The notes: generated by a model not told the origin, from the sequence alone. 32,000 nucleotides of DNA from Gemmata obscuriglobus (GCF_008065095.1 NZ_CP042911.1:4110001-4142000); one strand, 5' to 3'. Shown: positions 11,829 to 32,000, numbered from the stretch's first letter. Translations and numbers: made by a program.

Positions 11829-11890
11829 GTGGCAGAGACAGTAACGCTGTGCGGCCTTCTCGCGACGCACAGCGTTACTGTCTCTGCCAC
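11829..11890. terminator. Perfect 25-bp inverted repeat (hairpin 1 of 3) in the convergent glgP/tricorn gap
   Basis: GTGGCAGAGACAGTAACGCTGTGCG (11829-11853) and its exact reverse complement (11866-11890), with a 12-nt loop. Confidence 0.5.
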
Positions 11891-11900
11891 ACGATACAGA

Positions 11901-11937
11901 ATCGGCCGCTCGCGCCCCCGGTGCGCGAGCGGCCGAT
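11901..11937. terminator. Perfect 15-bp inverted repeat (hairpin 2 of 3)
   Basis: ATCGGCCGCTCGCGC (11901-11915), 7-nt loop ccccggt, GCGCGAGCGGCCGAT (11923-11937). Confidence 0.5.
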
Positions 11938-11948
11938 CGCGTTACGAT

Positions 11949-11976
11949 AGAAGCACCGGTTCACACCGGTGCTTCT
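11949..11976. terminator. Perfect 12-bp inverted repeat (hairpin 3 of 3), adjacent to the tricorn stop codon
   Basis: AGAAGCACCGGT (11949-11960), 4-nt loop tcac, ACCGGTGCTTCT (11965-11976). The arm ends 13 nt before the tricorn stop codon (11990-11992). Confidence 0.5.
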
Positions 11977-11989
11977 TCTGCTTGAGTTC

Positions 11990-15349: not shown

Positions 15350-15716
15350 ATCGAGTGCCTCGAGTGAATCGGGAGAGGATATGATGAATGGGCAGCGGAC
15401 ATGATAGCCGTCCCGGGATCGAACGGCGCGGGATTCACACCGGGTTCACGATGGGTGGGAAATGTGGAACGGCGCCCGGGATGGTGGAGATTGTGAACAA
15501 GAGAGCAGGTGTACGGTGTGCTAGTAATGCGAGTGAATGTTAAAGTGATGCTGCGCGCTGAGGTGATTTTAGACATGGTCGTATTATTTGATTGTTTTTT
15601 TCTTGCGGCGGTGGTGCCGTCGGCCCCCGCGCGCTGAGCCGGACGGATGGGAATCGGCTGCGCAGCGGGGAGCCGAAACGATAAACTCACACTGTGCCCA
15701 ACACCGGAGAACACCT

Positions 15717-16982
15717 GTGACGCTGCGCGCCTCGTTCGGACTCGCCAAACGCGTCCTGCTGGAAACAGACAAGCGGCTCCTGTGGAAGCTGGCGTACAAC
15801 ATGGGGTTCAAAGGCGCCCTGTCTGTTCACCGGCACAAGCTGCGGCTCAAACAGGGGCAGGTGTTCCCGCCGTTCCTGTACGTCAGCATCATCAACACCT
15901 GCAACCTGCGGTGCCAGGGGTGCTGGGTCGACGTGAGCATGAAGCAGGAAACGATCAAACCTGCGGCGTTCCACCAACTCGTCCGCGAAGCGAAGCAGAT
16001 GGGGAACGTGTTCTTCGGCATCGTCGGCGGCGAGCCGTTCATGCACCCGCACCTGCTCGACATGCTCGCGGAGCACCCCGACTGCTACTTCCAGATCTTC
16101 ACCAACGGACACTTCATCACGCCCGAGCGGGCCAAGCAGATGCGGCGGCTCGGGAACGTCACGCCCCTCATCTCGGTGGAAGGCACCGAGATCGTCTCCG
16201 ACGAGCGGCGGGGACGGGGAGGGGTGCTCAACCGAACCATGCAGGGGCTTCACAACGCCCTCGACGCCGGCGCCTTTACCGGGGTATGCACCAGCCTCGC
16301 GCGCACCAACATTGATGACCTCTTGCGCGAGGAGTGGATCGACCGGTTGGTGGAGATGGGGGTTCTTTACACGTGGTTCCACGTGTACCGCCCGATGGGG
16401 CCGAACCCGAACCCGGACCTGTGCCTTACTCCAGAACAGGCGCTCCGTGCGCGGCGGTTCGTGGTCGAAATGCGGGCCAAAAAGCCGATCGTGATTATCG
16501 ACGCGTATCACGACGGCGAGGGAAAGGCGCTGTGCCCCGCGGCGACCGGCATCAGTCACCACATCAACCCGTGGGGCGACATCGAGCCGTGCCCGATCGT
16601 GCAATTCTCAACCGAATCGATTCACCGCACGGGTGACACCCGGTCACTCAAGCAGAAGTTCCTCAAGTCCGCTTTTCTTGCCGACTTTCGCACGCTCGCG
16701 GCCGAGACGACGCGCGGGTGCATTGTCCTCGAACGCCCGGATTTGCTGAAGCGGTTAGTCGAGGCGCACGGCGCGAAGGACTCAACCGCCAGGCAAACGG
16801 CGCTCAAGGAACTCGGTGCGATGCGGGTGCGCACGTCGCAATACAACCCCGTTACAGAAGTGCCGGAGAAGAACATCTTCTATCGGTTGGCTAAAAGACT
16901 GTTTTTTAACGATTTCGGGGCGTACACCGGGCATGATGCGCGCCACGCCCAGGAATCCGCGCCGGCCCTGCTCCAGCAGTAG
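15717..16982 (+). CDS. Radical SAM enzyme with twitch-like (partial SPASM) auxiliary-cluster motif
   Basis: The preferred start is GTG 15717, with GGAGA 6 nt upstream. The TTG at 15588 in the track adds an implausible Arg/Trp-rich leader. The CxxxCxxC motif is in INTCNLRCQGCW, followed by GGEPFMHP and FTNG blocks. A C-terminal C-x13-G-x4-C (CPAATGISHHINPWGDIEPC) is followed by a single later Cys (RGCIVL). Confidence 0.8.
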   Translation: MTLRASFGLAKRVLLETDKRLLWKLAYNMGFKGALSVHRHKLRLKQGQVFPPFLYVSIINTCNLRCQGCWVDVSMKQETIKPAAFHQLVREAKQMGNVFFGIVGGEPFMHPHLLDMLAEHPDCYFQIFTNGHFITPERAKQMRRLGNVTPLISVEGTEIVSDERRGRGGVLNRTMQGLHNALDAGAFTGVCTSLARTNIDDLLREEWIDRLVEMGVLYTWFHVYRPMGPNPNPDLCLTPEQALRARRFVVEMRAKKPIVIIDAYHDGEGKALCPAATGISHHINPWGDIEPCPIVQFSTESIHRTGDTRSLKQKFLKSAFLADFRTLAAETTRGCIVLERPDLLKRLVEAHGAKDSTARQTALKELGAMRVRTSQYNPVTEVPEKNIFYRLAKRLFFNDFGAYTGHDARHAQESAPALLQQ

Positions 16983-17046
16983 TCGCCTCATCGCGTCCAG
17001 CAGTCGCCGCCCGGCAATGCGATTCTGTTGCCACGGGCCGAGGCCC

Positions 17047-19503
17047 TCAGGTTCCCCCGGTCCCGTTCAGGACGCGTTCGAGGTCGGCGAGTTGAACCGG
17101 CTTAACGAGGTGCGCGCTGCACCCCGCCTGGCGGGTCCTCTCGCGGTCGGATTCCTGCCCCCAGCCCGTGAGCGCGATGATGACGACGGGTGCGGCCCAG
17201 GGGCGGGTGCGGATCTGGGTCGTGGCCTCAAGGCCGTTGAGGCGCGGCATCCCGACATCCATGAATATGATGTCGGGGCGGAGCCGCTCGGCGAGTTCGA
17301 CCGCTTCCAACCCGTCGTGCCCGATGTGCACCTCGTTACCGAGCAGTTCCAGTAGCATGGCCAGCGATTCGGCCGCGTCGCGGTTGTCATCGACCACCAG
17401 AACCCGCCGGGGCCGGCTCCCCACCTCGACGGCCGTTCGCAGGGCCGGGGCGTCGTCTGCGGGCGCGCCGGGCAGCGGTAAGGTGACCGTGAACGCGCTC
17501 CCTTGGTTCGGGCCGTCGCTCGCGGCCGCCACGTTCCCTCCGTGCATTTCGACGAGTCCTTTCACGAGCGCGAGGCCGATACCCAGGCCGCCGGACGCAC
17601 GCTCGACGACGCGGTCGGCCTGCGAGAACATATCGAATATGCGGGGGAGGTAATCCGGAGGGATGCCCAGCCCGTTGTCGCGCACGGTCACCACCAAGGC
17701 GCCGTCGCGGCGCTCGGCGCGGAGCGCGATGCGGCCGCCGGGCGGGGTGTACTTGGCGCTGTTGGTCAGCAGGTTGGAAAACACCTGCGCGAGCCGGGTC
17801 AAGTCCGCGTCCAGGAAGACGGGCTCCGGCGGGAGTTCGACCGTGAACTCGTGACGGGCCTCCTCGATGAGCGGCCGGGCCGTTTCCGCGGCGCTCTCCA
17901 CCACCTCCGCCAGTGAGACGCGGGTGCGGCGCAGGTTCAGCTTGTTGCGACTGATTCGGGACACGTCGAGCAGGTCGTCGATGAGGCGCACGGTGTGGGT
18001 GAGCTGCCGCTCCATCATCTCGCGCGCCCGCTTGGCGGCGTCCCCGCGACCCTCGGTGAGCCGGAGCACCTGAAGCCCGTTCCGCAGCGGGGCGAGCGGG
18101 TTCCGTAGCTCGTGGGCCAGCAGGGCCAGGAACTCGTCTTTGCGCCGGTCCTGTTCCTTGAGCCGTGCGGCCCGTTCGGCCACCTTGGCCGCCAGCCGCG
18201 CGCGCTCTTTCGCCATCGCGGCATAGTGGCACACGGTCCGCAGCACGTCAATGTCCCCGTCGCTGAACCGGTCGCGTGTCATGGTGCCGAACGACAGGGT
18301 GCCCAGCAGGCGGTCCCCCGCGATCAGAGGGTGGCACGCGTACGCGCGCACGCCGAACGCTTTGACCCGTTGCGCGCGTGGCTCCCCGGACGACTGAACG
18401 TCGGTCGCGATCACGGCCTTGCGGGTGGTCGCCACCAGGCCGCACAGCGCCTCCTGGTTGTCGAGCCGGCGGATCGCGTCGACCGCTCCGACCGGCACCC
18501 CGGCACAGGCGACCAGCTCCAGGCCCGCGCCGTCGGGCGTCGGGGCGTAGTTGAAGTAGTGCGACAACGCGAGCGCCGGCGCGAGCGCGGCGAACAGGTC
18601 GGTCATCATCTGGACCGGGTCGCCGTCGGCGGCGAGCAACGCTTCGGCCGCGTCGGCAAGGATGGCGAGCCGGACGTTCTGGTGCCGGAGGCTCTCCTCG
18701 CCGGCCCGCAGCCGTTCCTCCAACTGTTTGCGGTCGTGGATGTCGGCGTTGATGCCGACCATGCGCACCGCCCCGCCGCCGGGGGCGAAGAGGAGCTTCG
18801 CCTGTCCGGCCAGCCAGCGCCGGGAGCCGTCCGGGCGCACCGCCCGGAACTCGTAAACCACGTCCGCGACGCGCTCCGCCACGCACCGGCGCACCTGGGC
18901 GCCGACGCGGGCCGCGTCCTCGGGCTCGACGCGCGTCTCCCAAGCCGCGTAGGTGCCCTCAAACGAGCCGCGCGGGACTCCGTACAGGTCCTCGAGTTCC
19001 GGGGACCACACCACCCGGTTCTCGGGGATGAGCCAGTCGAACACCCCGGACCGCCCCGCGGACAGCGCCAGCGCGAGCCGCTCGTTCGCCTCGCGCACGG
19101 CGCGCTCGGCCCGACGCCGCTCGGCCCGCTCGCGGGCCTCCTCGATCGCCCGCTCGATGGCCGGCACCAGCCGCTCCGGCCGGCTTTTGAGCACGTAATC
19201 GGTTGCGCCGAGCTTCAGCGTCTCGACGGCGCGCTCCTCGCCGAGCGCGCCGGACACGAACACGAACGGCACGTCCGGGCGACGCGCGCGGGCGAGCGCG
19301 AGGGCTTCCAGGCCGTCGAGATCCGGGAGCTGGTAGTCGGAGAGGATCAGGTCGAACGCGCGGTCGGCCGCGAGCCGCGCGAGGAAGTCGGCGCGGCCGA
19401 CCGCGCGCACCAGCTCGAACCCGGGGTTAGAGCGGGCGAGCCGCTGGGCGATCAGGTCGGCGTCGAGGTCGCTGTCTTCGAGGTGCAGAATCGTCGCGGC
19501 CAT
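17047..19503 (-). CDS. Hybrid sensor histidine kinase/response regulator (REC-PAS-GAF-HisKA-HATPase-REC)
   Basis: ATG 19503 has GGGGAG upstream and gives MAATILHLEDSDLD... as a normal REC N-terminus. The alternative GTG 19605 overlaps the upstream stop as GTGA. Domains: PAS/PAC (VFDWLIPENRVVWSPEL...MVGINADIHDRK), GAF (...RAYACHPLIAGDRLLGTLSFG), H-box FLALLAHELRNPLAPL, N/G boxes (NLLTNSAKYT, DNGLGIP, GGLGIGLALV) and a C-terminal REC (VLVVDDNRDAAE...IFMDVGMPRLNG...LVKP). Confidence 0.85.
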   Translation of the reverse strand: MAATILHLEDSDLDADLIAQRLARSNPGFELVRAVGRADFLARLAADRAFDLILSDYQLPDLDGLEALALARARRPDVPFVFVSGALGEERAVETLKLGATDYVLKSRPERLVPAIERAIEEARERAERRRAERAVREANERLALALSAGRSGVFDWLIPENRVVWSPELEDLYGVPRGSFEGTYAAWETRVEPEDAARVGAQVRRCVAERVADVVYEFRAVRPDGSRRWLAGQAKLLFAPGGGAVRMVGINADIHDRKQLEERLRAGEESLRHQNVRLAILADAAEALLAADGDPVQMMTDLFAALAPALALSHYFNYAPTPDGAGLELVACAGVPVGAVDAIRRLDNQEALCGLVATTRKAVIATDVQSSGEPRAQRVKAFGVRAYACHPLIAGDRLLGTLSFGTMTRDRFSDGDIDVLRTVCHYAAMAKERARLAAKVAERAARLKEQDRRKDEFLALLAHELRNPLAPLRNGLQVLRLTEGRGDAAKRAREMMERQLTHTVRLIDDLLDVSRISRNKLNLRRTRVSLAEVVESAAETARPLIEEARHEFTVELPPEPVFLDADLTRLAQVFSNLLTNSAKYTPPGGRIALRAERRDGALVVTVRDNGLGIPPDYLPRIFDMFSQADRVVERASGGLGIGLALVKGLVEMHGGNVAAASDGPNQGSAFTVTLPLPGAPADDAPALRTAVEVGSRPRRVLVVDDNRDAAESLAMLLELLGNEVHIGHDGLEAVELAERLRPDIIFMDVGMPRLNGLEATTQIRTRPWAAPVVIIALTGWGQESDRERTRQAGCSAHLVKPVQLADLERVLNGTGGT

Positions 19504-19601
19504 AAGCTCCCCGGAACGGCGTCCGTGCGCAACAGTGCGGTGGTCGGGTTGCGGCACGAACCCCGGCGGCACCGGCTGCTCAGTTACTCGGACCCCTGAA
19601 G

Positions 19602-20069
19602 TCACTCACCCGCGGGCGCGGAGCGCCCGGGCTTCAGGCTCCCCGGGGGCGGCTCGTTGAGTACCGCCCAGAAGATCCCTAGTTCCTCGATCGCGTGCAT
19701 GAACTCTTTGAACGCGACCGGTTTCACCACGTACGCGTTCACGCCGAGCTTGTAGCTGCGGAGCAGGTCCTGCTCCTCGCGGGACGTGGTCAGCATCACC
19801 ACGGGCACGCCCTGGAGGCCCGGGTCCTTCTTGACCTCTTCGAGCACCTGGAGCCCGTCCACCTTGGGCAGCTTCAAATCGAGCAGCACGACCGCGGGGT
19901 TGCCCTTCGGCCGGTTCGCGTAGGGGCCGCGGAGCAAAAGGTAGTCGAGGCACTCCTCGCCGTCTCGGACCGCGATCACCTCGTTGGCGAGGTTGCTCCG
20001 GGCCAGGGCGAGAAGGGTCAGCTCCAGATCCTTGGGGTTGTCCTCGACGAGCAAGATCGGCTTCAGCAC
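19602..20069 (-). CDS. Single-domain response regulator (phytochrome-associated, Rcp1-like)
   Basis: GTG start 2 nt after the bphP stop, with GAGGAGAGG upstream. The product is REC only: ILLVEDNPKD, phospho-acceptor region VVLLDLKLPKVDG, MLTTS and VVKP. There is no output domain. Confidence 0.9.
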   Translation of the reverse strand: MLKPILLVEDNPKDLELTLLALARSNLANEVIAVRDGEECLDYLLLRGPYANRPKGNPAVVLLDLKLPKVDGLQVLEEVKKDPGLQGVPVVMLTTSREEQDLLRSYKLGVNAYVVKPVAFKEFMHAIEELGIFWAVLNEPPPGSLKPGRSAPAGE

Positions 20070-20071
20070 GC

Positions 20072-22309
20072 TTACCTCTCCTCGTCATTGTTCGGTGCGG
20101 GCAGGGTCAAGTAGAACGTCGCCCCGCGGTCGACCTCGCCCTCGGCCCAGGCCCGCCCGCCGTGCCGCTCGACGATCCGCCGCACGTTCGCCAGCCCGAT
20201 GCCGGTGCCCTCGAAGTCCTCCCACCGGTGCAGCCGCTGGAACACCCCGAACAGCTTGTCCCGGTACCGCATGTCGAACCCGACCCCGTTATCGCGGACG
20301 TGGAGGGTGTGCGCCCCGGCGTCCGTCTGGCACCCGATCTCGATCACGGCCTCGCGCCGGGGCTTGGTGTATTTTACCGCGTTCGAGAGCAGGTTTTGAA
20401 CTGCCAGCCGGAGCATCATCAGGTCCCCCTCGACGGTGGGCAGGGGGCCGACCTCCCACCGCACCTGGCGGCCGGGCGCGGTCGCCATCACCTCCGCCCG
20501 GACCTCGCGCACCAGGACGTTCAGGTCGACCGTTGTGCGGTCGAGCGTGGCGCGGCCCATGCGCGAGTACGCCAGCAGGTTGTCCACCAGCTTCCCGGCG
20601 TACTCGCTCGACTCGATGATGGTGTCGCAGTACTTCAGCTCGCCGGCAGCGAGCTTGTCCCGGGCCACCTCTTTGAGCAACTCGGCGTACCCGACGATGT
20701 GCCGCAGCGGGGCGCGCAGGTCGTGGCTCACCGAGTACGAGAACGCCTCCAGCTCGCGGTTGCTGCGCTGCAGCTCGACGTTCAGCGCGGCCATCTCTTC
20801 CGCCTTCCGCAGCACGATACCCAGGACCGCGTTGCGGAGCTCGCCCGCGCCCGCGACCTCGCTCGGGAGCCACGGTACTGCTTTGTCGCGCACCGTCTGG
20901 GACCAGGTCTCGAACGACTTCCGCGGGTGCAACCGGCCGGTCGTCGGTTCGACCGCCTTCCGCGGGTCCCCGCCCCACTGGACGGTCTCGATCACCTCCG
21001 GCCTGAACCACAGCACGGCGGTGGGGTGGAGCTTCGACACCGACACCGCGAGCAGCCCGCTGGCGTCCGCGGCGTACTCCCGCGCCGGCGGGAACGCGGC
21101 CGACAGCGCGTCGGTGTGGTACACTTCCCTCTTCTGCTCACGGAACAGCCAGGCGGCCAGCTTTCGCACCTGCTCTTCGCCCGGCGTGCGGCCGACCAGC
21201 CCGGTGCGCCCGTCGGAGACGACCGCGGCCCCGGCGGCGCGAACGAAGCCGAGCAGGTCGGCGGGGTGAGCGAGCAGCCCGCTGACGTAGTCGTCGGCGC
21301 GGGCCATGTGCGCCAGCAGCCGCGTCAGGACCGACTGGATCTCCACGCGCCGCTCGTAGTCGGCGGCGTGCTCGCGGGCGGCCACCTGCAGGGCAAGCAC
21401 CTGCGCCAGCAGGTCGCACGTGGTGCGCGCTTCGAACGGCACGACCTTGGGCGCGTGGTGGTGGCACGAGATCAGCCCCCACAGCGCCCCGTCCCTCAGA
21501 ACCGACACGGACATGGACGCGGCGGTGCCCATGTTGCGCATGTACTCGACGTGGACCGGCGACACGCTCCGGAGCGCGGCGTGCGACAGGTCGACCGGCC
21601 CTCCCGACACCGGGTTGAGTGCCGGGATCAGCTCCGCCGGCGCGTAGTCCACATCGGGAATGAGCCGCAGCCGGTTCCGTCGGTACAGGTCGCGCGCTTG
21701 CTTCGGAATATCGGACGCCGGGAACCGGTGGTCCCGATACGATGGTAGACGCCCGTTACCGTCCTCGCCCACCACAACGCCGGTGCCGTCGGGCTCGAAC
21801 CGGTACACCAGCGCACGGTCGAACCCGGTCACGGCCCGCACCTCGACCGCTGCAAGCTGCGCGAGGTCGGCGGCGTTCGGAGCGGTCTGCACCTTGGCGA
21901 TGAAGCCCGCGATCACCGGGTGCAACCCGCCCGGGGGGCCGGGGGCGTCCGCCCCGGGCTCGAGTTCGAGTACGACCACGCGACCGACCCGGTGCCCGAT
22001 CGCGTTCAGGGCCGGTCCGTTTCCGATGCGCACCGCTCGTAACAGCACCGGCTCGCCGTTCGCCGGGAGCCGCGCGCCGAGGTCGCCGAGCGGCTCGAAC
22101 TGCTCCGGCCCCAAAACGGACCTGAGGTCCGAGCCCAACAGCTCGGGGATCGGACGTCCGAAAAAGCGGGGCGCGTTGGCGCTCACCTGCAATATGTTTA
22201 AGGACGTACCGGACAGGACCAGCAGGGCGCCGTGGGGCTGAATGCTGCCGGGGGTGTGGATCGGCTCTCGGTCACACGAGTTCAAGTCCGGTTCGGGGTG
22301 CGTGTTCAC
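20072..22309 (-). CDS. bphP: Bacteriophytochrome histidine kinase (PAS2-GAF-PHY-HisKA-HATPase)
   Basis: Chromophore Cys in LNSCDREPIHTPGSIQPHGALLVL. GAF motifs FPASDIPKQARDLY and SPVHVEYMRNMG. PHY tongue motifs WGG and PRKSF. H-box FSYSVSHDLRAPLR and HATPase (NLLSNAVKYT, DNGVGFD, GTGIGLANV). Start is GTG 22309 (GAGGG 7 nt upstream, GTGA overlap with the bphO stop) or ATG 22333 (no SD, 28-nt overlap). Confidence 0.9.
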   Translation of the reverse strand: MNTHPEPDLNSCDREPIHTPGSIQPHGALLVLSGTSLNILQVSANAPRFFGRPIPELLGSDLRSVLGPEQFEPLGDLGARLPANGEPVLLRAVRIGNGPALNAIGHRVGRVVVLELEPGADAPGPPGGLHPVIAGFIAKVQTAPNAADLAQLAAVEVRAVTGFDRALVYRFEPDGTGVVVGEDGNGRLPSYRDHRFPASDIPKQARDLYRRNRLRLIPDVDYAPAELIPALNPVSGGPVDLSHAALRSVSPVHVEYMRNMGTAASMSVSVLRDGALWGLISCHHHAPKVVPFEARTTCDLLAQVLALQVAAREHAADYERRVEIQSVLTRLLAHMARADDYVSGLLAHPADLLGFVRAAGAAVVSDGRTGLVGRTPGEEQVRKLAAWLFREQKREVYHTDALSAAFPPAREYAADASGLLAVSVSKLHPTAVLWFRPEVIETVQWGGDPRKAVEPTTGRLHPRKSFETWSQTVRDKAVPWLPSEVAGAGELRNAVLGIVLRKAEEMAALNVELQRSNRELEAFSYSVSHDLRAPLRHIVGYAELLKEVARDKLAAGELKYCDTIIESSEYAGKLVDNLLAYSRMGRATLDRTTVDLNVLVREVRAEVMATAPGRQVRWEVGPLPTVEGDLMMLRLAVQNLLSNAVKYTKPRREAVIEIGCQTDAGAHTLHVRDNGVGFDMRYRDKLFGVFQRLHRWEDFEGTGIGLANVRRIVERHGGRAWAEGEVDRGATFYLTLPAPNNDEER

Positions 22310-22875
22310 GTGGCGGCCCTCGTGACGAGCCATCGGTCGAACCGATCGAACGTGTCGCCCGCCGCGTTAACCACCTCGGTTTCGGCCTCGGGTGTCGTTG
22401 CGAACCGCACCAGGGCGGCCCGGAAGGCGGTCCACATCGGGCCAACGCGGTCGCCGTAGCTGTTGAAGAACCGGCACCCGCGGTCCGGGGTGTAGCCCAG
22501 GGCTTCGCGCACCATCCGGCACACGACGCGACCGCCGAGCGTGGCCCCTTCCAGAACGTACATCCGTCCGAGTGCTGCTCCGAGCGAACCGATTGGAGGG
22601 GCGGCGTCCAGTGGTACGTGTGCGGGAGAGCGCCCCAGCACCGAGAGGTCGCTGGCAAGGTGTGGGATCTTGCACCGCTCCATGAATGCGAGCCCGACCG
22701 ACTCGTACCCGCTGACGGCTGACAGGGCTGCTTCCAGCGGCCGATAGAACCCGTAAAAATGCCCGAGTAGCTCGGCGTACTCCGAGGGGCCGCGGAGCCG
22801 AGCGCCCAAGTCCACGCGCCGCTCAAGGCGAGCGTGCTGTTCCGCAGTCGTTTCCTTGAGGCGGTCGAGAATCAT
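22306..22875 (-). CDS. bphO: Heme oxygenase (biliverdin-producing, BphO type)
   Basis: 189 aa. MILDRLKETTAEQHARLERRV contains a proximal-His region typical of heme oxygenases. The gene sits immediately upstream of bphP and is translationally coupled to it. Confidence 0.85.
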   Translation of the reverse strand: MILDRLKETTAEQHARLERRVDLGARLRGPSEYAELLGHFYGFYRPLEAALSAVSGYESVGLAFMERCKIPHLASDLSVLGRSPAHVPLDAAPPIGSLGAALGRMYVLEGATLGGRVVCRMVREALGYTPDRGCRFFNSYGDRVGPMWTAFRAALVRFATTPEAETEVVNAAGDTFDRFDRWLVTRAAT

Positions 22876-23185
22876 GCGCTCCTCTCGGCGCGACGGTCAG
22901 ATTCCAACGGTAAAACGAATCGCCCGACCGCGAACCGGCCTCGTCAAGGCTCAGAATACTGATGCAAGTTCCGGCTGCGAAGTAAGCATATCACGTGCCG
23001 TTGCGGGCGAGATGCGGCCGCCGAACCGATTTTTGTTTGATCCTGTGAAACCTGCTTGTTGACCGGTTGCGCGAGCTGGTGCAACAGTAGGTAGTTCGAT
23101 TGCCTCGCCGCACCTGAACTGCCTCGGGGTCCGACGTGTAGACGCGAGACTCGGTCCCTCTGCCCAACAATTACGGGGAGCCGCC

Positions 23186-26100
23186 GTGCCCGTTGTCGTA
23201 CTGCTGCTGTGTACGCTGCCGCCCGTTGGGGACCACCCGCGGCCCGCACTCGTTACCGCCCGGTCGGTGCGGGCACTCGATCCTGAGGACGCCGCACGCG
23301 GTCACCCGGTCGACCTGTCAGGGGTTGTCACGGTGTCGAGCGCGCGGCCCCCGGAACTGTTCGTGCAAGACGACACGTGTGGCGTTTACGTCGAGATCAT
23401 GCAACTTCACGCCGACCTAAAGCCAGGAGCACAGGTTCGGGTGCGCGGGCGGGCGCGCGGCGGTTGGTTCTCTCCGCTCGTAGTGGCCGAGACCGTGGAA
23501 CGTGTCGGCGAGGGACGCTTTCCGGACCCGTTACCGTTCGACTTTTCGCAGCCGGCAGCCCGGTGGCTCGAATCCCAGTTCGTGCAAAGCCACTGTCTGG
23601 TTCGCAGTGTGCTGGCCGGTGGCGGCGGGTTGGAGGTCGATGGCACCGCCGGCCCTGGTGGTCTGGCGTTCCGCGCACCGCCCCCGGTAGCTGAGCTGCA
23701 GGCACTTGTTGGGACCATCGTCCGGGTGCGCGGGGTGTGTATCCCGGAGTACGGCCCGGGCGGCCGCGTGACCGGAGGGGCGCGGATCCTGGTTCACCAA
23801 CTGGGGGACATTCAAGTCGCGCAATCGCTCGAAACTGTTCGAGCGATGCCGGTGCGCACCGCCGGGTACTTGCGCCGGTTCCTTCCGGGCGTTGCGCCGA
23901 TACCCCTCGTGCGCATGTCGGGAGTCGTGACTGCTCGGGTGGGGCCGGACGTACTGATGGTTCAAGATGTGACCGCTGGGTTCACCGTCCACGCCCGACC
24001 GGGCACCGTTCCGATCGCGGTCGGCACTCTCGCGGACGTGCGCGGGTTCCTCACCTGGAGCGGGAGCCGGCTGACGGTACACCAAGCTGATGTGACCCCC
24101 TGCGGAGAAGCGCCGCTACCGGACCCGGTTGACCTCACACCGGCGACCGACCGGGCGAGCGTGGAAGGTGCCCGCGTTAGGTTCCATGGGCGGGTCGCGG
24201 AGAGCGGTCCGGGGCACCTGACCTTGGTTCGCGACGGTCTGGCCGTTCAGGTGCGACTGCCCGAGGACGATGGCCGCGTCGTGCCGGTCGGGAGCGTGGC
24301 GACGGCCGCCGGAGCGCTCGGCAGCCGGGAAGGGGCCGGCGCGGTGCTGTTCCCGGTCGGTGCGGGCGACGTGACCGTGGACGCACCGCCACCGGCGCGC
24401 CCGCTCACCCGGGCGCAAGTGGTTGCCGCGCTGTGGCTGGCGCTGGGCGCGGTGGTGGCTTGCGCGGCGTGGGCCTGGAGCCTGCACCGGGTCGTGCGGT
24501 TCCGCACCCGCGAGCTGAGCGAGTCCGAACGCAAGTTCGCGACCGCGTTCCATGCCAACCCGGACGCGGTGGTTCTCACCCGCGCCGGTGACGGGACAGT
24601 TCTGGAGGTCAACGACGGGTTTTGCCGGCTGTGCGGGTTGCCCAGGGGGCAGGTGCTCGGGCGGTCCGTCGTTGAACTCATCTGGCGCGACCCCGGCGCC
24701 CGGGCACGAATGCTCGACGCGGTTCGCGCCGCCGGGGCGGTCCGCGATTACCCGGGGGTGATCCGCGACGCGGCCGGGGCAACTCACGAGGTGAGCATTT
24801 TCTGCACCCGGATCGAGGTCGGCGGGAGCGAGTGCCTGCTCGGGACCATTCGCGACGTGACCGAGCGGAACCGGGCCGAGCGCGAGGTCCGCAACGAGCG
24901 GCTGTTCGTGGACACCATGATCGAGAGCATGCCCGGTGTGCTGTACTGCTACGACTCCGACGGGAAGTTCTTGCGCTGGAACCGGCGGTTCGAGACGGTT
25001 ACCGGGTACTCGGCGGCCGAGATCGCGGGCATGCACCCGCTGGACTTTTTTACCCCGGCGGACCGCCCGTTGCTGAGCCGACGGATCGGAGACGCGTTTG
25101 CGACCGGCGAGGCGCACGCGGAGGCGCCGCTCTTGGCGAAGGACGGTACGGCGCGGCCGTACCACTTCACCGGGCGCCGGGTCGCGTTCGATGCCGCCAC
25201 GTGCCTGGTCGGCATCGGCATCGACGTGTCCGCGCGGCACGACGCCGAGCGCCAGCGGGCGGAGAGCGAGCGCCGGTACCGCGAACTGGTCGAGCTGGCC
25301 AACAGCATCATCCTTCGGTGGACCCCGGACGGGCGGGTCGCGTTCCTGAACGAGTTCGGGCAGCGGTTCTTCGGGTTCACCGGGGACGAGATCGTGGGCC
25401 GCCACGTGTTGGACACGATTGTGCCGTACACCGAGAGCACCGGGCGCGATCTGAAGGGGCTGATCGAGCGGGTGTGCGCGGACCCGGAGGCGTTTGAACA
25501 GAGCGTGAACGAGAACGTGCGCCGCGACGGCACCCGGGCGTGGGTGGCGTGGACGAATCGGATCGTGCTCGGGGCCGGCGGCGAGGTGGTCGAGATCCTC
25601 AGCGTGGGGTCCGACGTGACCGGGGCGCGGCGCATGGAGCAAGCGCTGGTCGCGTCCGAGAAGAAGTTCTCGGCGGTGTTCCGGCTCTCCCCGGTGTCCC
25701 TCGCTCTGACCCGGCTCGACGGGCCGATCGTTGACGTGAACAAGTCGTTCGAGCGGATTTACAAGCTGTCCGCCGAGCGGGTCCGCGGGCGCCTCCCGAC
25801 CGACTTCGCCGAGCTGTACGACGCGCCGGCCGACCGGGCGCTGTACGCCGAGCGCCTGCGCCGCGACGGGCGGCTCTCGGGCATCGAGGTGCGGCGGGTG
25901 CTGGGCGACGGGTCTGCCGTGGACCTGGTGGTCGCCGCGGAGCTGATCGAGCTGGACGGGGCCGCGCACGCGCTGGTCGCGTCGACCGACGTGACCCCCC
26001 TCAAGCGGGCGGAGAAGGCGCTGCGCGAGGCGAACGCCGCGCTCGAGCGGCGGGTCGAAGCGCGCACCAACGAGCTGGTCGCCGCGAACGCCGAACTGGA

Positions 26101-26779
26101 GGCCTTCTGCTACTCGGTGTCGCACGACCTGCGGGCCCCGCTCCGGGCCGTCGACGGGTTCAGCCAGGCGGTGCTGGAGGATTACGGGCCGCGGCTCGAC
26201 GCGGAGGGGCAGGGGTTCCTGAAGCGCATCCGCGGCGCCGCGGCCCGGATGGGCGAGCTGATCGACGACCTGCTCACGCTGTCGCGGGTCACCCGGGCGG
26301 ACCTGCGCCGCGAGCGGGTGGACCTGTCGGCCCTGGCCGGAGAGGTGGTGCGCGCGCTGCGGCAGGCCGACCCGGGCCGCGAGGTGGAAGCGGTGGTCGC
26401 CCCCGGGCTGTTCGCCGACGGGGACCGGAGCCTGCTCCGGGTGGTGCTCGAGAACCTGCTCGGGAACGCCTGGAAGTACACCTCGAAGGTGGAGGCCGCG
26501 CGCATCGAGTTGGGCAGCGAGGCCCGCTCCGAGGGGCTGCTGTTTTTCGTCCGCGACAACGGCGCCGGGTTCGACCCGGCCTACGCGCACAAACTGTTCC
26601 AGCCGTTCCAGCGGCTGCATCGGGAGGCCGAGTTCCCGGGGCACGGGGTCGGGCTGGCGACGGTGCTGCGGGTGGTGCGGCGGCACGGCGGCGCGGTCGG
26701 GGCCGAGGGATCGGTTGGCAACGGCGCCCGGTTCTGGTTTACAATGCCCGTACACCACCCGGGACCGCACCATGAGTGA
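23186..26779 (+). CDS. Membrane sensor histidine kinase (repeat ectodomain - TM - 4x PAS - HisKA - HATPase)
   Basis: GTG start with GGGGAG 5 nt upstream. About 410 aa of extracytoplasmic region precede one TM helix (VVAALWLALGAVVACAAWAWSL, nt ~24416-24484). Four PAS modules follow (starting FHANPDAVVL, MPGVLYCYD, LANSIILRW, LSPVSLALTR). The H-box is FCYSVSHDLRAPLR and the N/G boxes are NLLGNAWKYT, DNGAGFD, GHGVGLATV. Confidence 0.85.
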   Translation: MPVVVLLLCTLPPVGDHPRPALVTARSVRALDPEDAARGHPVDLSGVVTVSSARPPELFVQDDTCGVYVEIMQLHADLKPGAQVRVRGRARGGWFSPLVVAETVERVGEGRFPDPLPFDFSQPAARWLESQFVQSHCLVRSVLAGGGGLEVDGTAGPGGLAFRAPPPVAELQALVGTIVRVRGVCIPEYGPGGRVTGGARILVHQLGDIQVAQSLETVRAMPVRTAGYLRRFLPGVAPIPLVRMSGVVTARVGPDVLMVQDVTAGFTVHARPGTVPIAVGTLADVRGFLTWSGSRLTVHQADVTPCGEAPLPDPVDLTPATDRASVEGARVRFHGRVAESGPGHLTLVRDGLAVQVRLPEDDGRVVPVGSVATAAGALGSREGAGAVLFPVGAGDVTVDAPPPARPLTRAQVVAALWLALGAVVACAAWAWSLHRVVRFRTRELSESERKFATAFHANPDAVVLTRAGDGTVLEVNDGFCRLCGLPRGQVLGRSVVELIWRDPGARARMLDAVRAAGAVRDYPGVIRDAAGATHEVSIFCTRIEVGGSECLLGTIRDVTERNRAEREVRNERLFVDTMIESMPGVLYCYDSDGKFLRWNRRFETVTGYSAAEIAGMHPLDFFTPADRPLLSRRIGDAFATGEAHAEAPLLAKDGTARPYHFTGRRVAFDAATCLVGIGIDVSARHDAERQRAESERRYRELVELANSIILRWTPDGRVAFLNEFGQRFFGFTGDEIVGRHVLDTIVPYTESTGRDLKGLIERVCADPEAFEQSVNENVRRDGTRAWVAWTNRIVLGAGGEVVEILSVGSDVTGARRMEQALVASEKKFSAVFRLSPVSLALTRLDGPIVDVNKSFERIYKLSAERVRGRLPTDFAELYDAPADRALYAERLRRDGRLSGIEVRRVLGDGSAVDLVVAAELIELDGAAHALVASTDVTPLKRAEKALREANAALERRVEARTNELVAANAELEAFCYSVSHDLRAPLRAVDGFSQAVLEDYGPRLDAEGQGFLKRIRGAAARMGELIDDLLTLSRVTRADLRRERVDLSALAGEVVRALRQADPGREVEAVVAPGLFADGDRSLLRVVLENLLGNAWKYTSKVEAARIELGSEARSEGLLFFVRDNGAGFDPAYAHKLFQPFQRLHREAEFPGHGVGLATVLRVVRRHGGAVGAEGSVGNGARFWFTMPVHHPGPHHE

Positions 26780-27217
26780 CGCTTGCATCCTCCTTGTGGA
26801 GGACAACGAAGACGACATCGCGCTGACCCTGCGGGCGTTCCGCAAGTCGAACATCGCCAACCCTGTCGTGGTCGCCCGCGACGGGGTCGAGGCGCTGGAC
26901 TACCTGTTCGGCACCGGGGCGCACGCCGGCCGCGATGCCGCCGCCGTGCCGGCAGTGATCCTCCTGGACCTGAAGCTGCCTCGCGTGGACGGGCTGGAAG
27001 TCCTGCGGCGGCTCCGCGAGGACCCCCGCACCCGGCTCGTCCGTACAATAATTCTGACCTCATCGAAAGAGGAAATCGATGTGTCCCAGAGTTACGAACT
27101 GGGCGCGTGCAGCTACATCCGCAAGCCGGTGGACTTCGACAAGTTCGTCCAGGCGGTGAGTACGCTCGGCGTGTACTGGTTGCTGCTCAACGAAACCCCA
27201 CCCCGGTCCGCCGCCCT

Positions 27218-27221
<4 letters not shown>
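26772..27221 (+). CDS. Single-domain response regulator (paralogue of 19602..20069)
   Basis: I take the internal ATG 26772 of track ORF 26715..27221. It overlaps the kinase stop (ATGAGTGA). Blocks: MSDACILLVEDNEDD, VILLDLKLPRVDG, ILTSS, IRKP. REC only. Confidence 0.9.
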
Positions 27222-29197
<1,976 letters not shown>

Positions 29198-29384
29198 CGC
29201 CGGTGCCGCAGGGCGCTTCCAAACCGCTGGAGTTGTTCATGAGGATCCCGCCGGTGACGACTCCGGGGTCGCTTCGAGAGTAGGGGCACCGCGGCAGGCG
29301 TGCGAGCGACATGTGCCGGGCCGACGAATTGCGGCGTGCTTGTTCGCCGCCCATTGAGAACGCGAAATGGGCTTGATTTTTTCC

Positions 29385-29412
29385 TTGCACGCGCGAAATT
29401 CGTTGCTATTGT
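29385..29412 (+). promoter_or_regulatory. Candidate sigma70-like promoter for the YceK-like gene
   Basis: TTGCAC (29385-29390), 16-nt spacer, TATTGT (29407-29412), about 33 nt upstream of ATG 29445. This is pattern match only, and planctomycete promoter consensus is poorly defined. Confidence 0.2.
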
Positions 29413-29444
29413 CCCCCCTCGCGCCGACCTCAGGGGGCAGGGAA

Positions 29445-29921
29445 ATGGCTTTTCGCGCAATCTGCATCGTGTTGCTGCTCTCGACTGTGTTTGTCACGGG
29501 GTGCGGGACGATCGCAAACACGGTGATATCGCGGTCGGAAGAGCTGAAAGACCCCTTCGGCGGGGTGCATCGAGACCTACATTGCATTCGGAAGGCGGCA
29601 AACGGCGAGGGCGGTTTGAGGGCACACGGCTCGTCGGAACCGGAGCCGTATCCGAAGCTGGCCGTTATGCTCCTCTGCGCCGTGGACCTGCCGTTCAGTC
29701 TCGTCGGCGATGTCGTGATGTGGCCGTATACGGTGGCATACAATTACGTCAATCAGCCGGTCCCAACCGTGCCGGTAACGTCCGCCGTTCCGTACCCAGG
29801 GCTGGCTGCCCCGCCCCTGACTCCCGCCCCGGCTGCCCCTCCCGCAATGCTGCCGATGACCGCGCCGGCGCCGTCTGCGGGACTGCCACCGGGTACAAAC
29901 AAATTGAGCAAGGGGCCGTAA
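29445..29921 (+). CDS. YceK/YidQ-family lipoprotein (DUF1375-like) with Pro-rich C-terminal tail
   Basis: I take the internal ATG 29445 of track ORF 29367..29921, with a G-rich SD upstream. Signal plus lipobox: MAFRAICIVLLLSTVFVTGC. GTIANTV...LLCAVDLPFSLVGDVVMWPYT resembles the YceK core (ILDLPFSLVFDT in E. coli, from memory). The tail is PVPTVPVTSAVPYPGLAAPPLTPAPAAPPAMLP. Confidence 0.65.
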   Translation: MAFRAICIVLLLSTVFVTGCGTIANTVISRSEELKDPFGGVHRDLHCIRKAANGEGGLRAHGSSEPEPYPKLAVMLLCAVDLPFSLVGDVVMWPYTVAYNYVNQPVPTVPVTSAVPYPGLAAPPLTPAPAAPPAMLPMTAPAPSAGLPPGTNKLSKGP

Positions 29922-30324
29922 TCTGCGTCTGTCGGTCGATTCCGGGTTCGGTGCCGTGTAACTCCAAACTCGGGTCGGTATGCGTGGAGTGCGTCGAGGC
30001 GGTTACTGTTCTTGCTGTACTCGATGGCTGAATGTTTCGCGCACCCGGCGCGTTCAACGCGCTGGCGACACAATTCAGCTTGAGGCGAGGCCCTGCTTGA
30101 CACTCGGGCGTGACGAACCTCGCGCTCGGAAACGGTTCGATGCGGTTCGAGACGAACCGCACCGGCCTAACGACGTGGCGCGGGTTGTGTAACACCTCAA
30201 AGGGCCAAGTACTCGTTCGCGACCGCACAAGTCTGACTGCGCGTGGGGCTGGTGGACCCGGCCCGGCGTTTCATCCTCCGCATGCGCGGCCGATGTTGCG
30301 GCACGGGGCGGGTGACCCGGCGCG

Positions 30325-30735
30325 TCAGTCCTTCAACTCGATCACAACCCCGTCGTTGGTGCCTTGCTTCAGGGTGATCCGCACGCCGCTGGAGTTCGGC
30401 TGCTGGAACTTTGGCGGAAGGTTGAACTTGGCCGCGGGCGGTTGCTTCGTTCCGGGCGGGAGCTGCCCGGGAACCGGTGGCTGAAGGAACACTTTGTACT
30501 CGGTCGCATCCAGCGGGCCTTCGATCTTGAACGCACCGTTCTCGGACAAGATCGCCTGCCCCCCGGAGCCGGTGTCCGAGATCAGGTTGATCGACCCGAC
30601 CGTTTGCGGCTTCCCGTTGTAGCTCACGGTGCCGCTCACGGAGGCGGTCGGTTTTTGGCTCGAGCACCCGGCAACGAGGCACAGCACGACGAACACAGCG
30701 CCGCTGAGTTTACGGGCCGGGAATCCTGTTGTCAT
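30325..30735 (-). CDS. Small lipoprotein, carboxypeptidase-regulatory-like beta domain (DUF1559-associated)
   Basis: I take the internal ATG 30735 of track ORF 30325..31059. MTTGFPARKLSGAVFVVLCLVAGCSS carries a VAGC lipobox. The beta-rich SVSGTVSYNGKPQTVGSINLISD...AFKIEGPLDATEYKVFL is followed by a Pro-rich PPVPGQLPPGTKQPP segment. Confidence 0.65.
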   Translation of the reverse strand: MTTGFPARKLSGAVFVVLCLVAGCSSQKPTASVSGTVSYNGKPQTVGSINLISDTGSGGQAILSENGAFKIEGPLDATEYKVFLQPPVPGQLPPGTKQPPAAKFNLPPKFQQPNSSGVRITLKQGTNDGVVIELKD

Positions 30736-30803
30736 GGGTTCGGACACCTCGACTTGTGGGTAGGGTGGAGGGCGGGCGGGCGACCCCGCCCGGCACGGCG
30801 GGG

Positions 30804-31817
30804 TCAGTTGAACGAAGCCACCAACCCGTCGTTGCGGGCGCACAGCCGCTGGAACGTGGTGAAGTCGATGCCGTCGTTCACGAAGCGGACCGACCCGTCG
30901 GCGACGAGCACGTTGATGCCGCCGCTGTGGAACGAGTTCAAGACCGTGTTGCCGCCCCAACTGAACGCCGCCCCGCTCCCGCACGTTTTCGAGTTGATGG
31001 CGTAGGCGTTGGCGGTCAGCCCCATGCCCCAGAGGTCCCCGCACCCGCCGGTGCCGCACGAACCGACCCCGCGGGCCGACGTGTTCGTGCAGCCGCCCCA
31101 GGGGCTGAAGTACCCGTTCCGGGCGTCGCCGCTGGCGTAACTACAGTTCTGCACGTTGCCGGACTGTTCGGCGACGAAGATCGTGTTCGACAGGCCGTCC
31201 GTCACCCCGCTCACGGTCACCTGCTCGTTCCAGAGCAGCATCCCGTTGTTGGCCCACCACCCCCCGTAGTTCGATGCGGAGTACGCGGTCCCTCCCGACG
31301 GGTCCGGGTACGCGCCCATGACGCCCTGATACGCCGGCACCTGGTGGTTCTGTTGCGTCCACCACGTGACCCACGCCTGCGGCTGCGTTTCCGGTAGCGC
31401 GCTGGACGGGCACTTCCAGGTTTTGAGCACGGCGCCGTTGAGCACCGCCAGCGGTGTGGGGCTGGAGTACACGCGCTTCTTGAGCCGGCCGTTGATCGTC
31501 TCGCTCGGGAGCGCGTTGTACAGGTTGTCGAGTTCCAGGTACGGGAAGATCTCCACGCGCCAGTTGCCGTGTTCGATCCCGTAACCTTCTTGCCCCACCG
31601 GGTATTTCTGGTACGCGCCCTCGAAATTGTGGAGCGCGAGCCCGATCTGCTTGAGGTTGTTACTGCACTGCATGCGGGCCGCGGCCTCGCGCACTTTTTG
31701 CACCGCGGGCAACAAGAGGCCGATCAGGATCGCGATGATCGCGATCACCACCAGTAACTCGATGAGAGTGAATGCTCGGGCGACGGTTGGTCGCCGACGG
31801 GGGCGGGATGAGCGCAT
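30804..31817 (-). CDS. DUF1559 / H-X9-DG protein with prepilin-type N-terminal cleavage/methylation domain
   Basis: I take the internal ATG 31817 of track ORF 30804..31922. The N-terminus is [65 protein letters not shown]. The C-terminal [16 protein letters not shown] gives exactly H-X9-DG. Confidence 0.9.
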
Positions 31818-32000
31818 AGAGGGTCCTGGAGCGAAGCGGGTATGAGTTTGCCGGGCCGGGAGAATGAAAGAGGCGGCGGGCCGGAGATGGAGAGGGAACG
31901 TTCGGAGAAGGTAACCGGTCACCGGGTCAAGTGCAACAGAATACTTGGCGCACGTTAACCACGCAACTACGGTCTCAAGATTGAAACGTGAGTCGGGGGG

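Follow-up and report, generated by a model that had tools for sequence, protein, structure and literature searches.

The two divergent operons on either side of the 310-bp gap at 22876-23185 of the Gemmata obscuriglobus DNA analysed here (32,000 nucleotides, in the following 'the window') are, taking together their origin, the working proposed for them and their predicted insulation, probably best explained as separate operons of one old three-gene module. Such a module would consist of a sensor histidine kinase, a phytochrome-type small receiver and a second kinase switched by its own N-terminal receiver, with cassette A (minus strand) as the phytochrome version and cassette B (plus strand) as a non-phytochrome version of one widespread design. 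The A and B lineages would have parted long before the sampled Gemmata species diverged, and the back-to-back placement would have arisen only in the G. algarum lineage, by genome rearrangement.

Organization of the locus

On the minus strand, cassette A comprises, in this order, bphO (22306-22875; heme oxygenase, 189 aa; Pfam Heme_oxygenase, E 1.7e-16), bphP (20072-22333; bacteriophytochrome histidine kinase, 753 aa, with the Pfam arrangement PAS2-GAF-PHY-HisKA-HATPase), REC_A (19602-20069; single-domain bacteriophytochrome response regulator, 155 aa, matched in Pfam by Response_reg only) and HHK_A (17047-19503; hybrid kinase, REC-PAS_3-GAF-HisKA-HATPase-REC in Pfam, 818 aa). The HHK_A open reading frame reaches a GTG at 19605, its likely start being the ATG at 19503. 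On the plus strand, cassette B comprises HK_B (23186-26779; membrane sensor kinase, 1197 aa, with four PAS domains followed by HisKA-HATPase in Pfam), REC_B (26772-27221; single-domain response regulator, 149 aa, also matched by Response_reg only) and HHK_B (27218-29197; hybrid kinase, REC-HisKA-HATPase-REC in Pfam, 659 aa). The genes overlap by 28 nt (bphO/bphP), 8 nt (HK_B/REC_B) and 4 nt (REC_B/HHK_B), and the other junctions of cassette A measure a few nt at most. Coordinates and strands thus agree with the mirror-image gene order described in the initial annotation.

Pfam also reproduced the earlier count of four kinase cores and six receivers for the two cassettes together, with catalytic residues intact in all of them, and found neither an Hpt nor a DNA-binding nor an enzymatic output domain, whether in the seven genes or in the open reading frames next to them in the window. 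The Hpt domain and the terminal output regulator of a multistep His-Asp-His-Asp phosphorelay are therefore not encoded within the window, in line with the earlier statement that the read-out lies outside the locus, and the output of both cassettes may be encoded elsewhere in the genome.

The intergenic region (22876-23185, between bphO and HK_B) gave no sigma-70-like promoter match and no recognisable shared promoter or repeated motif, and neither the gap nor the region downstream of HHK_B yielded anything informative when scanned for promoters and terminators. When aligned with the gap of G. algarum JC673 its mean column identity is 83%, a value drawn from two sequences, in an alignment that takes in approximately 50 coding nt on either side; on inspection by eye, conservation seems higher next to bphO than next to HK_B. 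The window gave no match in Rfam or tRNA scans.

Cassette A: a bacteriophytochrome operon

In BphP, Pfam recognizes PAS_2, GAF, PHY (E 7e-57), HisKA and HATPase_c. The PAS2-GAF-PHY photosensory core carries the N-terminal biliverdin-binding Cys (Cys20, within CDREPIH) along with PASDIP at 205, WGG at 453 and the PRxSF motif (PRKSF at 470), and in the kinase part His537 and the G1 and G2 boxes are present. The match to the NCBIfam BphP model (E 1e-96) is under the curated cut-off. The protein is 90% identical to that of G. algarum JC673 and 50-58% identical to BphPs of other phyla. An exact look-up of the 753-aa form gave no match; public assemblies give a 745-aa BphP, from a different start. 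The upstream bphO, on the same strand, places a heme oxygenase within the operon, an arrangement also found in loci L001 and L002 and in several others, and BphO is predicted to make the biliverdin chromophore.

REC_A aligns over its whole length with PDB 5IC5 (E 2.5e-62), which we take to be the Ramlibacter regulator, and with 5BRJ (E 5e-59). The equivalents of CheY D57, T87 and K109 are all present, and the protein ends with the tail FWAVLNEPPP. Phytochrome response regulators are said to form arm-in-arm dimers through their C-terminal tail, a description attributed to Baker et al. 2016. HHK_A, like HHK_B, has the equivalents of D57, S87 and K109 as well as His, G1 and G2 in place. Its N-terminal receiver is matched by the NCBIfam LvrB model, and is separated from the kinase core by approximately 315 aa (PAS-GAF).

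The gene order is a constant feature of BphP loci drawn from Planctomycetota, Polyangia, Bdellovibrionota, Alphaproteobacteria and Acidobacteriota, where bphP is followed by a small BRR-type receiver in 79 of 79 cases and this receiver by a kinase with an N-terminal REC in 78 of 78. Judging from these sequence comparisons, cassette A appears to be a member of the known bphO-bphP-BRR-hybrid kinase operon type. A search of the literature on Gemmata and phytochromes found nothing relevant.

Cassette B: the same triad with a different sensor

HK_B had been described as an ectodomain/TM/4xPAS kinase, a reading borne out by the four PAS domains and the HisKA-HATPase core seen in Pfam and by one strong transmembrane segment (residues 407-433). 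Residues approximately 20-400 are predicted to form a periplasmic region of four tandem OB-like folds on the basis of an AlphaFold model (pLDDT 78, pTM 0.60), the Foldseek matches of which are tandem-OB proteins and YgiW (TMt 0.72). The ectodomain is matched by no Pfam or NCBIfam model. A word-indexed homologue search gave two matches only, whereas an exhaustive HMMER search found it to be common to 3085 representative clusters; the array occurs in kinases and in diguanylate cyclases. Public assemblies start HK_B at an internal GTG (23441), the context of which is kept in JC673.

The solved structures that best match REC_B are again those of phytochrome response regulators, 5IC5 (E 6e-42) and 5BRJ (E 2e-41), followed by RcpB, RcpA and Rcp1, and its tail (YWLLLNETPP) aligns with that of REC_A. 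By these structural relatives and by the C-terminal extension after helix 5, REC_B is a BRR/Rcp-type receiver. It is not linked to a phytochrome: Pfam finds no PAS2-GAF-PHY in HK_B, and a phytochrome module was near the REC_B relatives in none of 86 loci. Instead, these relatives have a kinase core upstream in 46 of 52 loci (HK_B-type in 45) and an N-terminal REC downstream in 52 of 69 (HHK_B-type in 51). Among cluster representatives, at least 120 share 69-94% identity with REC_B.

In HHK_B, the orthologue of which in G. palustris has 664 aa, approximately 150 aa, possibly a PAS domain, lie between the N-terminal REC and HisKA, the latter being of the AHDFNNLL type. The 'PAS-like' label given earlier to this middle region finds an echo in a PAS_4 match in Pfam, but at E 0.08 this is sub-threshold, and nothing was matched there in NCBIfam. 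HHK_B scores 332 bits with the VirA-like NCBIfam model PRK13837 and 206 bits with LvrB, both under the respective cut-offs.

Relationship between the two cassettes

On sequence grounds, the positional counterparts of the two cassettes are homologous. Pairwise BLASTP aligned the BphP and HK_B kinase cores with 46% identity over 226 aa (E 1e-50) and REC_A and REC_B with 52% identity over 141 aa (E 9e-50), in agreement with the pairing proposed in the initial annotation. The near-identity of the first-kinase H-boxes also stood: the two 50-nt strings quoted for them each occur once only, at 26093-26142 (plus strand) and 20706-20755 (minus strand), and by our own count are identical at 42 of 50 positions. 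The claimed likeness of the hybrid kinases held for their N-terminal receivers (44% over 112 aa, E 1e-18) but not beyond them. The HHK_A and HHK_B cores are only 31% identical, HHK_A being closer to the core of HK_B (35.5%); their H-boxes are of different types (AHELRNPL and AHDFNNLL, respectively); and BLASTP returned no alignment between their C-terminal receivers.

These likenesses, namely the mirror-image order about the gap, the homologous first-kinase cores, small receivers and third-gene N-terminal receivers and the shared H-box peptides with their 42 common nucleotides, had been read as the outcome of a three-gene relay duplicated and inverted in place, one copy of which swapped its photosensory module for an extracytoplasmic sensor. 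We now regard this reading as very improbable, since the counterparts are not each other's closest relatives. REC_A is 62-81% identical to BphP-linked receivers of Polyangia, Bdellovibrionota, Methylobacterium and others and approximately 51-52% identical to REC_B, and REC_B is 61-72% identical to receivers of non-phytochrome triads from many environments. The kinase cores have median identities of 63% and 58% within their types versus approximately 44-46% between the BphP and HK_B of the window, and the N-terminal receivers of the third genes are likewise closer to their own type elsewhere than to each other. Overall, the components of the window are 53-81% identical to their own type in other phyla and 44-52% identical to the neighbouring counterpart, which, carried over from paralogues in the same genome to relatives in other genomes, is the outcome that had been named in advance as fatal to the duplication model. 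For each of the three components, a neighbour-joining tree without outgroup placed phytochrome-linked triads (A) apart from non-phytochrome ones (B), with bootstraps of 200, 197 and 164 of 200, a clean split that partly reflects sampling, because the loci were gathered by similarity to the genes of the window themselves. The same A and B grouping applies to the first and second proteins and to the receiver at the N-terminus of the third, and the parts that follow this receiver are interchangeable. At the nucleotide level the similarity between the cassettes is confined to three main patches of 67-78% identity, the H-box Ser codons are unlike (AGC versus TCG), and the third genes differ in the type of their kinase cores and C-terminal receivers, none of which resembles a recent inverted segmental duplication.

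Synteny points the same way. The window aligns collinearly with G. algarum JC673 over 15595-29209 (88.6% nucleotide identity), with Gemmata sp. IIL30 over 17069-22587 only, which is cassette A without B beside it, and with G. palustris over 23354-29026 only, which is cassette B without A. The IIL30 cassette A and the G. palustris cassette B each have unrelated flanks. Each cassette is its own syntenic block, and among the genomes compared the adjacency, which the initial annotation had proposed to look for in related genomes, is seen only in the window and in JC673.

That at least one cassette was acquired horizontally, already assembled as an operon, and came to lie next to the other by chance, is a possibility that we hold tentatively. 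It is in keeping with the nearest non-Gemmata BphPs being those of Polyangia (58%) and Bdellovibrionota (56%), with other Planctomycetota at 50-56%, with REC_B relatives of approximately 70% identity in Gemmatimonadales and Binatia, and with the horizontal spread argued for the dpx operon (PMC13492139). The G+C content at 17-29 kb (0.66-0.73) is somewhat above that of the immediate flanks (0.63-0.66), but values of 0.67-0.69 are also reached elsewhere in the window. Neither cassette is flanked there by mobile-element genes or repeats. Moreover, each cassette is present in at least two Gemmata species, so that any transfer would not be recent. Horizontal transfer is compatible with, rather than opposed to, the preferred view of two separate operons of an old module.

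Proposed signalling and insulation

By analogy only, we infer phosphotransfer routes of the same form for both cassettes. The first kinase would autophosphorylate on the H-box histidine under the control of its sensor, the predicted input being red/far-red light perceived through biliverdin in cassette A, and a putative periplasmic cue at the four OB-like folds, together with signals at the cytoplasmic PAS domains, in cassette B. From the first kinase the phosphoryl group would pass both to the small receiver, acting as a sink or as a dimeric adaptor, and to the third protein at its N-terminal receiver. Phosphorylation of this N-terminal receiver would switch on the second kinase, to which the PAS/GAF region could add a second, intracellular signal. 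The phosphoryl group would then move to the C-terminal receiver of this kinase, from which the next acceptor would be a phosphotransfer protein or response regulator whose gene lies elsewhere. The C-terminal receivers may act in relay or, as in VirA, in autoinhibition.

Eleven kinase-core positions, concentrated directly behind the H-box and in helix 2 of the DHp domain, and nine receiver positions, concentrated in helix 1 and the beta5-alpha5 region, distinguish A from B while being conserved inside each group. Positions of this kind in DHp domains and receivers normally set partner specificity. These interface residues suggest that the cassettes are largely insulated from each other, with some cross-talk or heterodimer formation possible given the near-identity of the first-kinase H-boxes and the tail retained by both small receivers.

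On such grounds the adjacency might itself be functional in the G. algarum lineage, with bidirectional control, phosphoryl exchange or mixed dimers integrating light and the periplasmic cue. We find this unlikely. Two genomes of the lineage share the arrangement collinearly, at 88.6% nucleotide identity, but these are close relatives, so that its retention says little, and in two other Gemmata species the cassettes lie apart. The near-identical H-boxes, and the membership of both small receivers, tails included, in the 5IC5/5BRJ family, would favour exchange between the cassettes; the 11 kinase and nine receiver positions specific to each group, mostly where specificity is normally set, argue mildly against it, and the gap shows no recognisable shared promoter or repeated motif. 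Precedents exist in the proposal by the Ramlibacter authors that a single receiver dimer serves two cooperating phytochromes (PMC6848086) and in the reported integration of the Dpx and Rca pathways in Fremyella (PMC13492139). A still bolder combination, which we consider quite unlikely, would have the adjacency non-neutral, with REC_A:REC_B mixed dimers or kinase cross-phosphorylation merging red-light and periplasmic signals before the receiver-controlled kinases, and, more broadly, the non-phytochrome triad as a pan-bacterial architecture that the literature searched does not describe as a unit.

Comparison with known systems

Under the preferred reading of separate operons of an old module, two Gemmata operons are assigned to modules already studied, namely the Ramlibacter BphP1 operon, the Lhf system of R. 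palustris and LvrB-type kinases, and mirror-image order with shared motifs is not evidence of local duplication. Kinase, BRR-type receiver and receiver-controlled kinase form a triad whose conservation reaches well beyond phytochromes, and the periplasmic array of four OB-like folds in HK_B is without a Pfam or NCBIfam model, yet present in more than 3000 protein clusters. The practical value of the assignment is modest. Cassette B belongs to a widespread triad that is a sibling of the phytochrome one.

The closest parallel to cassette A is the hmuO-RtBphP1-RtBRR-RtBHK operon of Ramlibacter tataouinensis, with the same four genes in the same order (PMC6848086). Its receiver, 5IC5, is the one with which REC_A aligns full length, C-terminal FWAVLNEPPPGS tail included, and mutants of the phytochrome and of the 'atypical hybrid kinase' share their phenotype (PMC6848086). 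Ramlibacter belongs to another phylum, and the likeness of the third gene to RtBHK is one of gene type and place in the order. Rcp1, RcpA and RcpB (1I3C, 1K68 and 1K66; E 1e-18 to 1e-30), which are paired with phytochrome-type kinases, belong to the same small-receiver structural family, but are more distant from REC_A and REC_B than these are from 5IC5 and 5BRJ.

In the R. palustris Lhf system (bphP2/bphP3-lhfD (rpa3017)-lhfE (rpa3018), with lhfA), a phytochrome kinase, a small receiver and a REC-kinase are found together as in cassette A. The small receiver, LhfD, is a phosphorylation target of BphP2 and BphP3 and is described as a phosphate sink; LhfE, the REC-kinase, adds a redox signal and is needed for output via a separate transcription factor (PMC6879726). 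A second signal entering at the REC-kinase and an output through a separate protein are features that the scheme proposed for cassette A would share. Lhf differs in its two tandem phytochromes, in the adjoining transcription factor gene, a regulator of which the window has no counterpart, and in its REC-kinase, LhfE relying on a cysteine for sensing where HHK_A contains PAS and GAF domains.

For the switching of the second kinase the model is Leptospira LvrA-LvrB-LvrC, where an upstream kinase phosphorylates, and so activates, a second kinase via its N-terminal receiver (PMC13269768, PMC5863495); LvrB shows in structural terms how a kinase of this kind is turned on by phosphorylation of its receiver (PMC13269768). 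Both HHK_A and HHK_B combine, as LvrB-type kinases do, an N-terminal receiver with its phospho-acceptor Asp, a DHp and a CA domain in one protein, and the BphP core, the HHK_A N-terminal receiver and the HHK_B core have LvrA and LvrB models of NCBIfam among their best matches. The scores are far under the curated cut-offs (218 versus 1200 bits and, for the LvrB equivalog NF047466, 206 and 154 versus 500 bits). LvrB has the bare arrangement REC-DHp-CA. In HHK_A and HHK_B a C-terminal receiver is added and sensor regions are inserted, so that the approximately 315 aa and 150 aa noted above take the place of a direct REC-helix-DHp link. As described, the Lvr system is without a separate small receiver gene.

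The cyanobacterial dpxABC operon has the same architecture (PMC13492139). Its sensor is a cyanobacteriochrome, not a PAS-GAF-PHY phytochrome, and its two copies are not described as divergent neighbours. The likeness, which we take from the description of the architecture in that paper, lies in its conservation as a unit across distant lineages and in the presence, alongside it in one genome, of a second, dpx-like operon whose sensor is modified; the operon appears to have spread horizontally (PMC13492139).

Layout of the two operons

The seven genes between 17047 and 29197 form two operons that diverge from a 310-bp gap (22876-23185). Cassette A, on the minus strand, comprises bphO (22306-22875; Pfam Heme_oxygenase), bphP for the bacteriophytochrome kinase (20072-22333; PAS_2-GAF-PHY-HisKA-HATPase), the receiver-only REC_A of 155 aa (19602-20069) and the hybrid kinase HHK_A (17047-19503, in an ORF reaching 19605; REC-PAS-GAF-HisKA-HATPase-REC). 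Cassette B, on the plus strand, comprises the sensor kinase HK_B of 1197 aa (23186-26779; four PAS plus HisKA-HATPase), the receiver-only REC_B of 149 aa (26772-27221) and the hybrid kinase HHK_B of 659 aa (27218-29197; REC-HisKA-HATPase-REC). Start/stop overlaps of 8 and 4 nt within cassette B and of 28 nt between bphO and bphP, with a spacing of at most a few nt between the other cassette A genes if the longest ORF starts are assumed, make a typical operon layout. Coordinates and Pfam thus bear out the layout and domain set of the initial annotation, every named domain being recovered, and the two DNA strings quoted there are found exactly in place. The phospho-acceptor Asp is retained in all six receivers, the His, G1 box and G2 box in all four kinase cores, and BphP carries Cys20 with the PASDIP, WGG and PRKSF motifs. 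Pfam detected neither an Hpt nor a DNA-binding or enzymatic output domain in the seven genes.

The flanks (811-16982 and 30804-31922) contain genes without relation to signalling, namely those for an HlyD-like protein, an MgtE/CBS transporter, an oxidoreductase, an MFS transporter, a nucleotidyl transferase, a DUF3417/phosphorylase, a tricorn-like protease (1119 aa), a radical SAM protein and a DUF1559 protein with an N-terminal methylation motif. The stretch 29200-30800 has a lower G+C content (about 0.65) and no confident gene except one small plus-strand ORF (29367/29445-29921) with a weak DUF1375 match, lying in a stretch (29339-29942) partly kept in Gemmata algarum JC673 (78.7% nucleotide identity). 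Scans for tRNA and Rfam families gave no match across the whole window.

Relation between the cassettes

The initial annotation had judged that the paired components look like true paralogues. A specific resemblance is present for the first kinase cores (BphP versus HK_B, 46% identity over 226 aa by BLASTP), for REC_A and REC_B (52% over 141 aa) and for the N-terminal receivers of the third genes (44% over 112 aa), but not for the third genes beyond that receiver: the HHK_A and HHK_B kinase cores share 31%, the HHK_A core being nearer to that of HK_B (35.5%), the H-box is of one type in HHK_A (AHELRNPL) and of another in HHK_B (AHDFNNLL), and BLASTP gave no alignment of their C-terminal receivers. 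The HHK_B core and C-terminal receiver resemble VirA-like kinases (NCBIfam). At the DNA level, likeness is confined to three main patches of 67-78% identity.

It had further been proposed that a three-gene relay was duplicated and inverted at the locus. Across genomes, each component is nearer to its own type elsewhere than to its neighbour. REC_A shares 62-81% identity (median 69%) with its own type outside Gemmata versus 51% with its window counterpart, and REC_B 61-72% (median 67%) versus 51%; the corresponding medians are 63% for the BphP core and 58% for the HK_B core versus 44%, and 53% and 52% for the N-terminal receivers of HHK_A and HHK_B, respectively, versus 43%. Neighbour-joining trees gave a clean A|B split for all three components (bootstraps 200/200, 197/200 and 164/200), being built without outgroup on thinned sets, with the A and B sets collected by similarity to the window genes.

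A BphP scan of one genome per species returned 80 loci. Identity was highest for G. algarum JC673, at 90%, followed by Gemmata sp. IIL30 at 75%, which assigns the window to a Gemmata of the G. algarum lineage. JC673 is collinear with the window over 15595-29209 (88.6% nucleotide identity). IIL30 aligns over 17069-22587 only, that is cassette A, with no cassette B within 10 kb, and G. palustris G18 over 23354-29026 only, its cassette B being placed after uvrC with no phytochrome nearby. Each cassette is therefore a conserved block of its own, and among the genomes compared the back-to-back placement was found in the G. algarum lineage alone. Across genomes, these comparisons turn out in the way that the initial annotation had named as counting against a local duplication, and the duplication-inversion is not supported. 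What stands of that proposal is a shared ancestry with different sensors: the two triads do go back to one origin, but a deep one.

Distribution and modularity of the triads

A REC_A-type receiver follows bphP in 79/79 usable BphP loci, and a receiver-first protein comes next in all 78 with enough sequence, from Planctomycetota, Polyangia, Bdellovibrionota, many Alphaproteobacteria and one Acidobacteriota MAG. For REC_B, at least 120 cluster representatives share 69-94% identity, Gemmatimonadales and Binatia being among their sources, and a metagenome scan with REC_B added 80 further loci. Upstream of the REC_B-type receiver a kinase core is found in 46 of the 52 loci with room, 45 being of HK_B type (roughly 50-65% identity); downstream, an N-terminal receiver is found in 52/69 loci, 51 being of HHK_B type. 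None of 86 REC_B-type loci contains a phytochrome module. Thus, the triad is old and widespread and exists in two flavours, a phytochrome-linked A type and a non-phytochrome B type, the latter a widespread sibling to which cassette B belongs.

The module is often multiplied and rearranged: among the retrieved loci, L111 (1345-8900) has two triads in tandem, L132 (325-7200) three consecutive HK_B-type cores followed by one small receiver, and L084 (6344-12527) and L085 an HK_B-type kinase with a dCache sensor placed after the receiver rather than before it. As for the A type, the nearest non-Gemmata BphPs are from Polyangia/Bdellovibrionota MAGs (56-58%; L003, L004, L005) versus 50-56% for other Planctomycetota (L006-L008, L017, L041), a pattern which may mean that the operon as a whole has spread horizontally.

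Third genes of A-type loci carry an HHK_B-type core in 56 cases and an HHK_A-type core in 11. Beyond Planctomycetota and Polyangia (L009-L079, Methylobacterium and relatives), most third genes linked to a phytochrome have the HHK_B-type core (AHDFNNLL), not the HHK_A type. Between the receiver and the core lies a spacer of anything from 38 to 921 residues. The third gene is thus highly modular beyond its N-terminal receiver, so that the conserved unit consists of the first kinase core, the small receiver and the second-kinase receiver, around which sensors and downstream parts are freely exchanged.

The sensor region of HK_B

Residues 1-440 of HK_B (23186-24505) have no match in Pfam or NCBIfam, and a single strong membrane helix spans residues 407-433. 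An exhaustive search with the ectodomain gave 3085 representative clusters (E ≤ 0.001); of the eight matches inspected, most are large sensor kinases, and there are also matches to two diguanylate cyclases. In the AlphaFold model (pLDDT 78, pTM 0.60), four small beta-barrels precede the membrane helix, with strands from residue 41 onwards. With Foldseek it matched tandem-OB proteins, a single unit matching the periplasmic protein YgiW (1nnx; TMt 0.72). The periplasmic part of HK_B is thus predicted to consist of four tandem OB-like beta-barrels. Public assemblies start HK_B at an internal GTG (23441; 1112 aa) rather than at 23186, a choice that would cost the protein its hydrophobic N-terminal stretch as well as a large part of OB-like fold one. 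In G. algarum JC673, both the upstream start and the sequence around it are kept.

Proposed signal flow and cross-talk

By analogy with precedents, the first kinase of each cassette would autophosphorylate under control of its own sensor and pass the phosphoryl group to the small receiver and to the N-terminal receiver of the second kinase. The latter would thereby be switched on, with its PAS/GAF region possibly bringing in a second signal, and would phosphorylate its own C-terminal receiver and, from there, partners encoded elsewhere. Because the H-boxes are almost identical, cross-talk between cassettes is possible in principle. However, 11 positions in the kinase core and nine in the receiver are conserved within and different between the groups; on the kinase side they lie just past the H-box and in DHp helix 2, on the receiver side in helix 1 and around beta5-alpha5. 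Such regions are partner determinants in established two-component specificity work, so that the cassettes are predicted, with moderate confidence, to be insulated from each other, and the integration of light and an envelope cue proposed in the initial annotation is mildly disfavoured.

Comparison with known systems

Among known structures, REC_A aligns over its full length with 5IC5 (E 2.5e-62) and 5BRJ (E 5e-59), which are also the best matches of REC_B (E 6e-42 and 2e-41). The two structures are phytochrome response regulators, 5IC5 from Ramlibacter and 5BRJ from Agrobacterium. Cassette A belongs to a known, experimentally studied operon type: its gene order matches that of the Ramlibacter hmuO-BphP1-BRR-'atypical hybrid kinase' operon, where phytochrome and hybrid-kinase mutants have a common phenotype (PMC6848086). 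In R. palustris, the small receiver LhfD, called a phosphate sink, is phosphorylated by BphP2/3, and the REC-kinase LhfE contributes a redox signal and is needed for output via the transcription factor LhfA (PMC6879726). The BphP core and the third genes have the NCBIfam models for LvrA and LvrB among their top matches, at scores well under cut-off; in LvrB structures, phosphorylation of the N-terminal receiver releases the catalytic domains, making the kinase active (PMC13269768). Finally, cyanobacterial dpxABC, kept across distant orders with horizontal spread being argued, and accompanied by a dpx-like second copy in a genome carrying it, has the same three-part plan as the window triads (PMC13492139).
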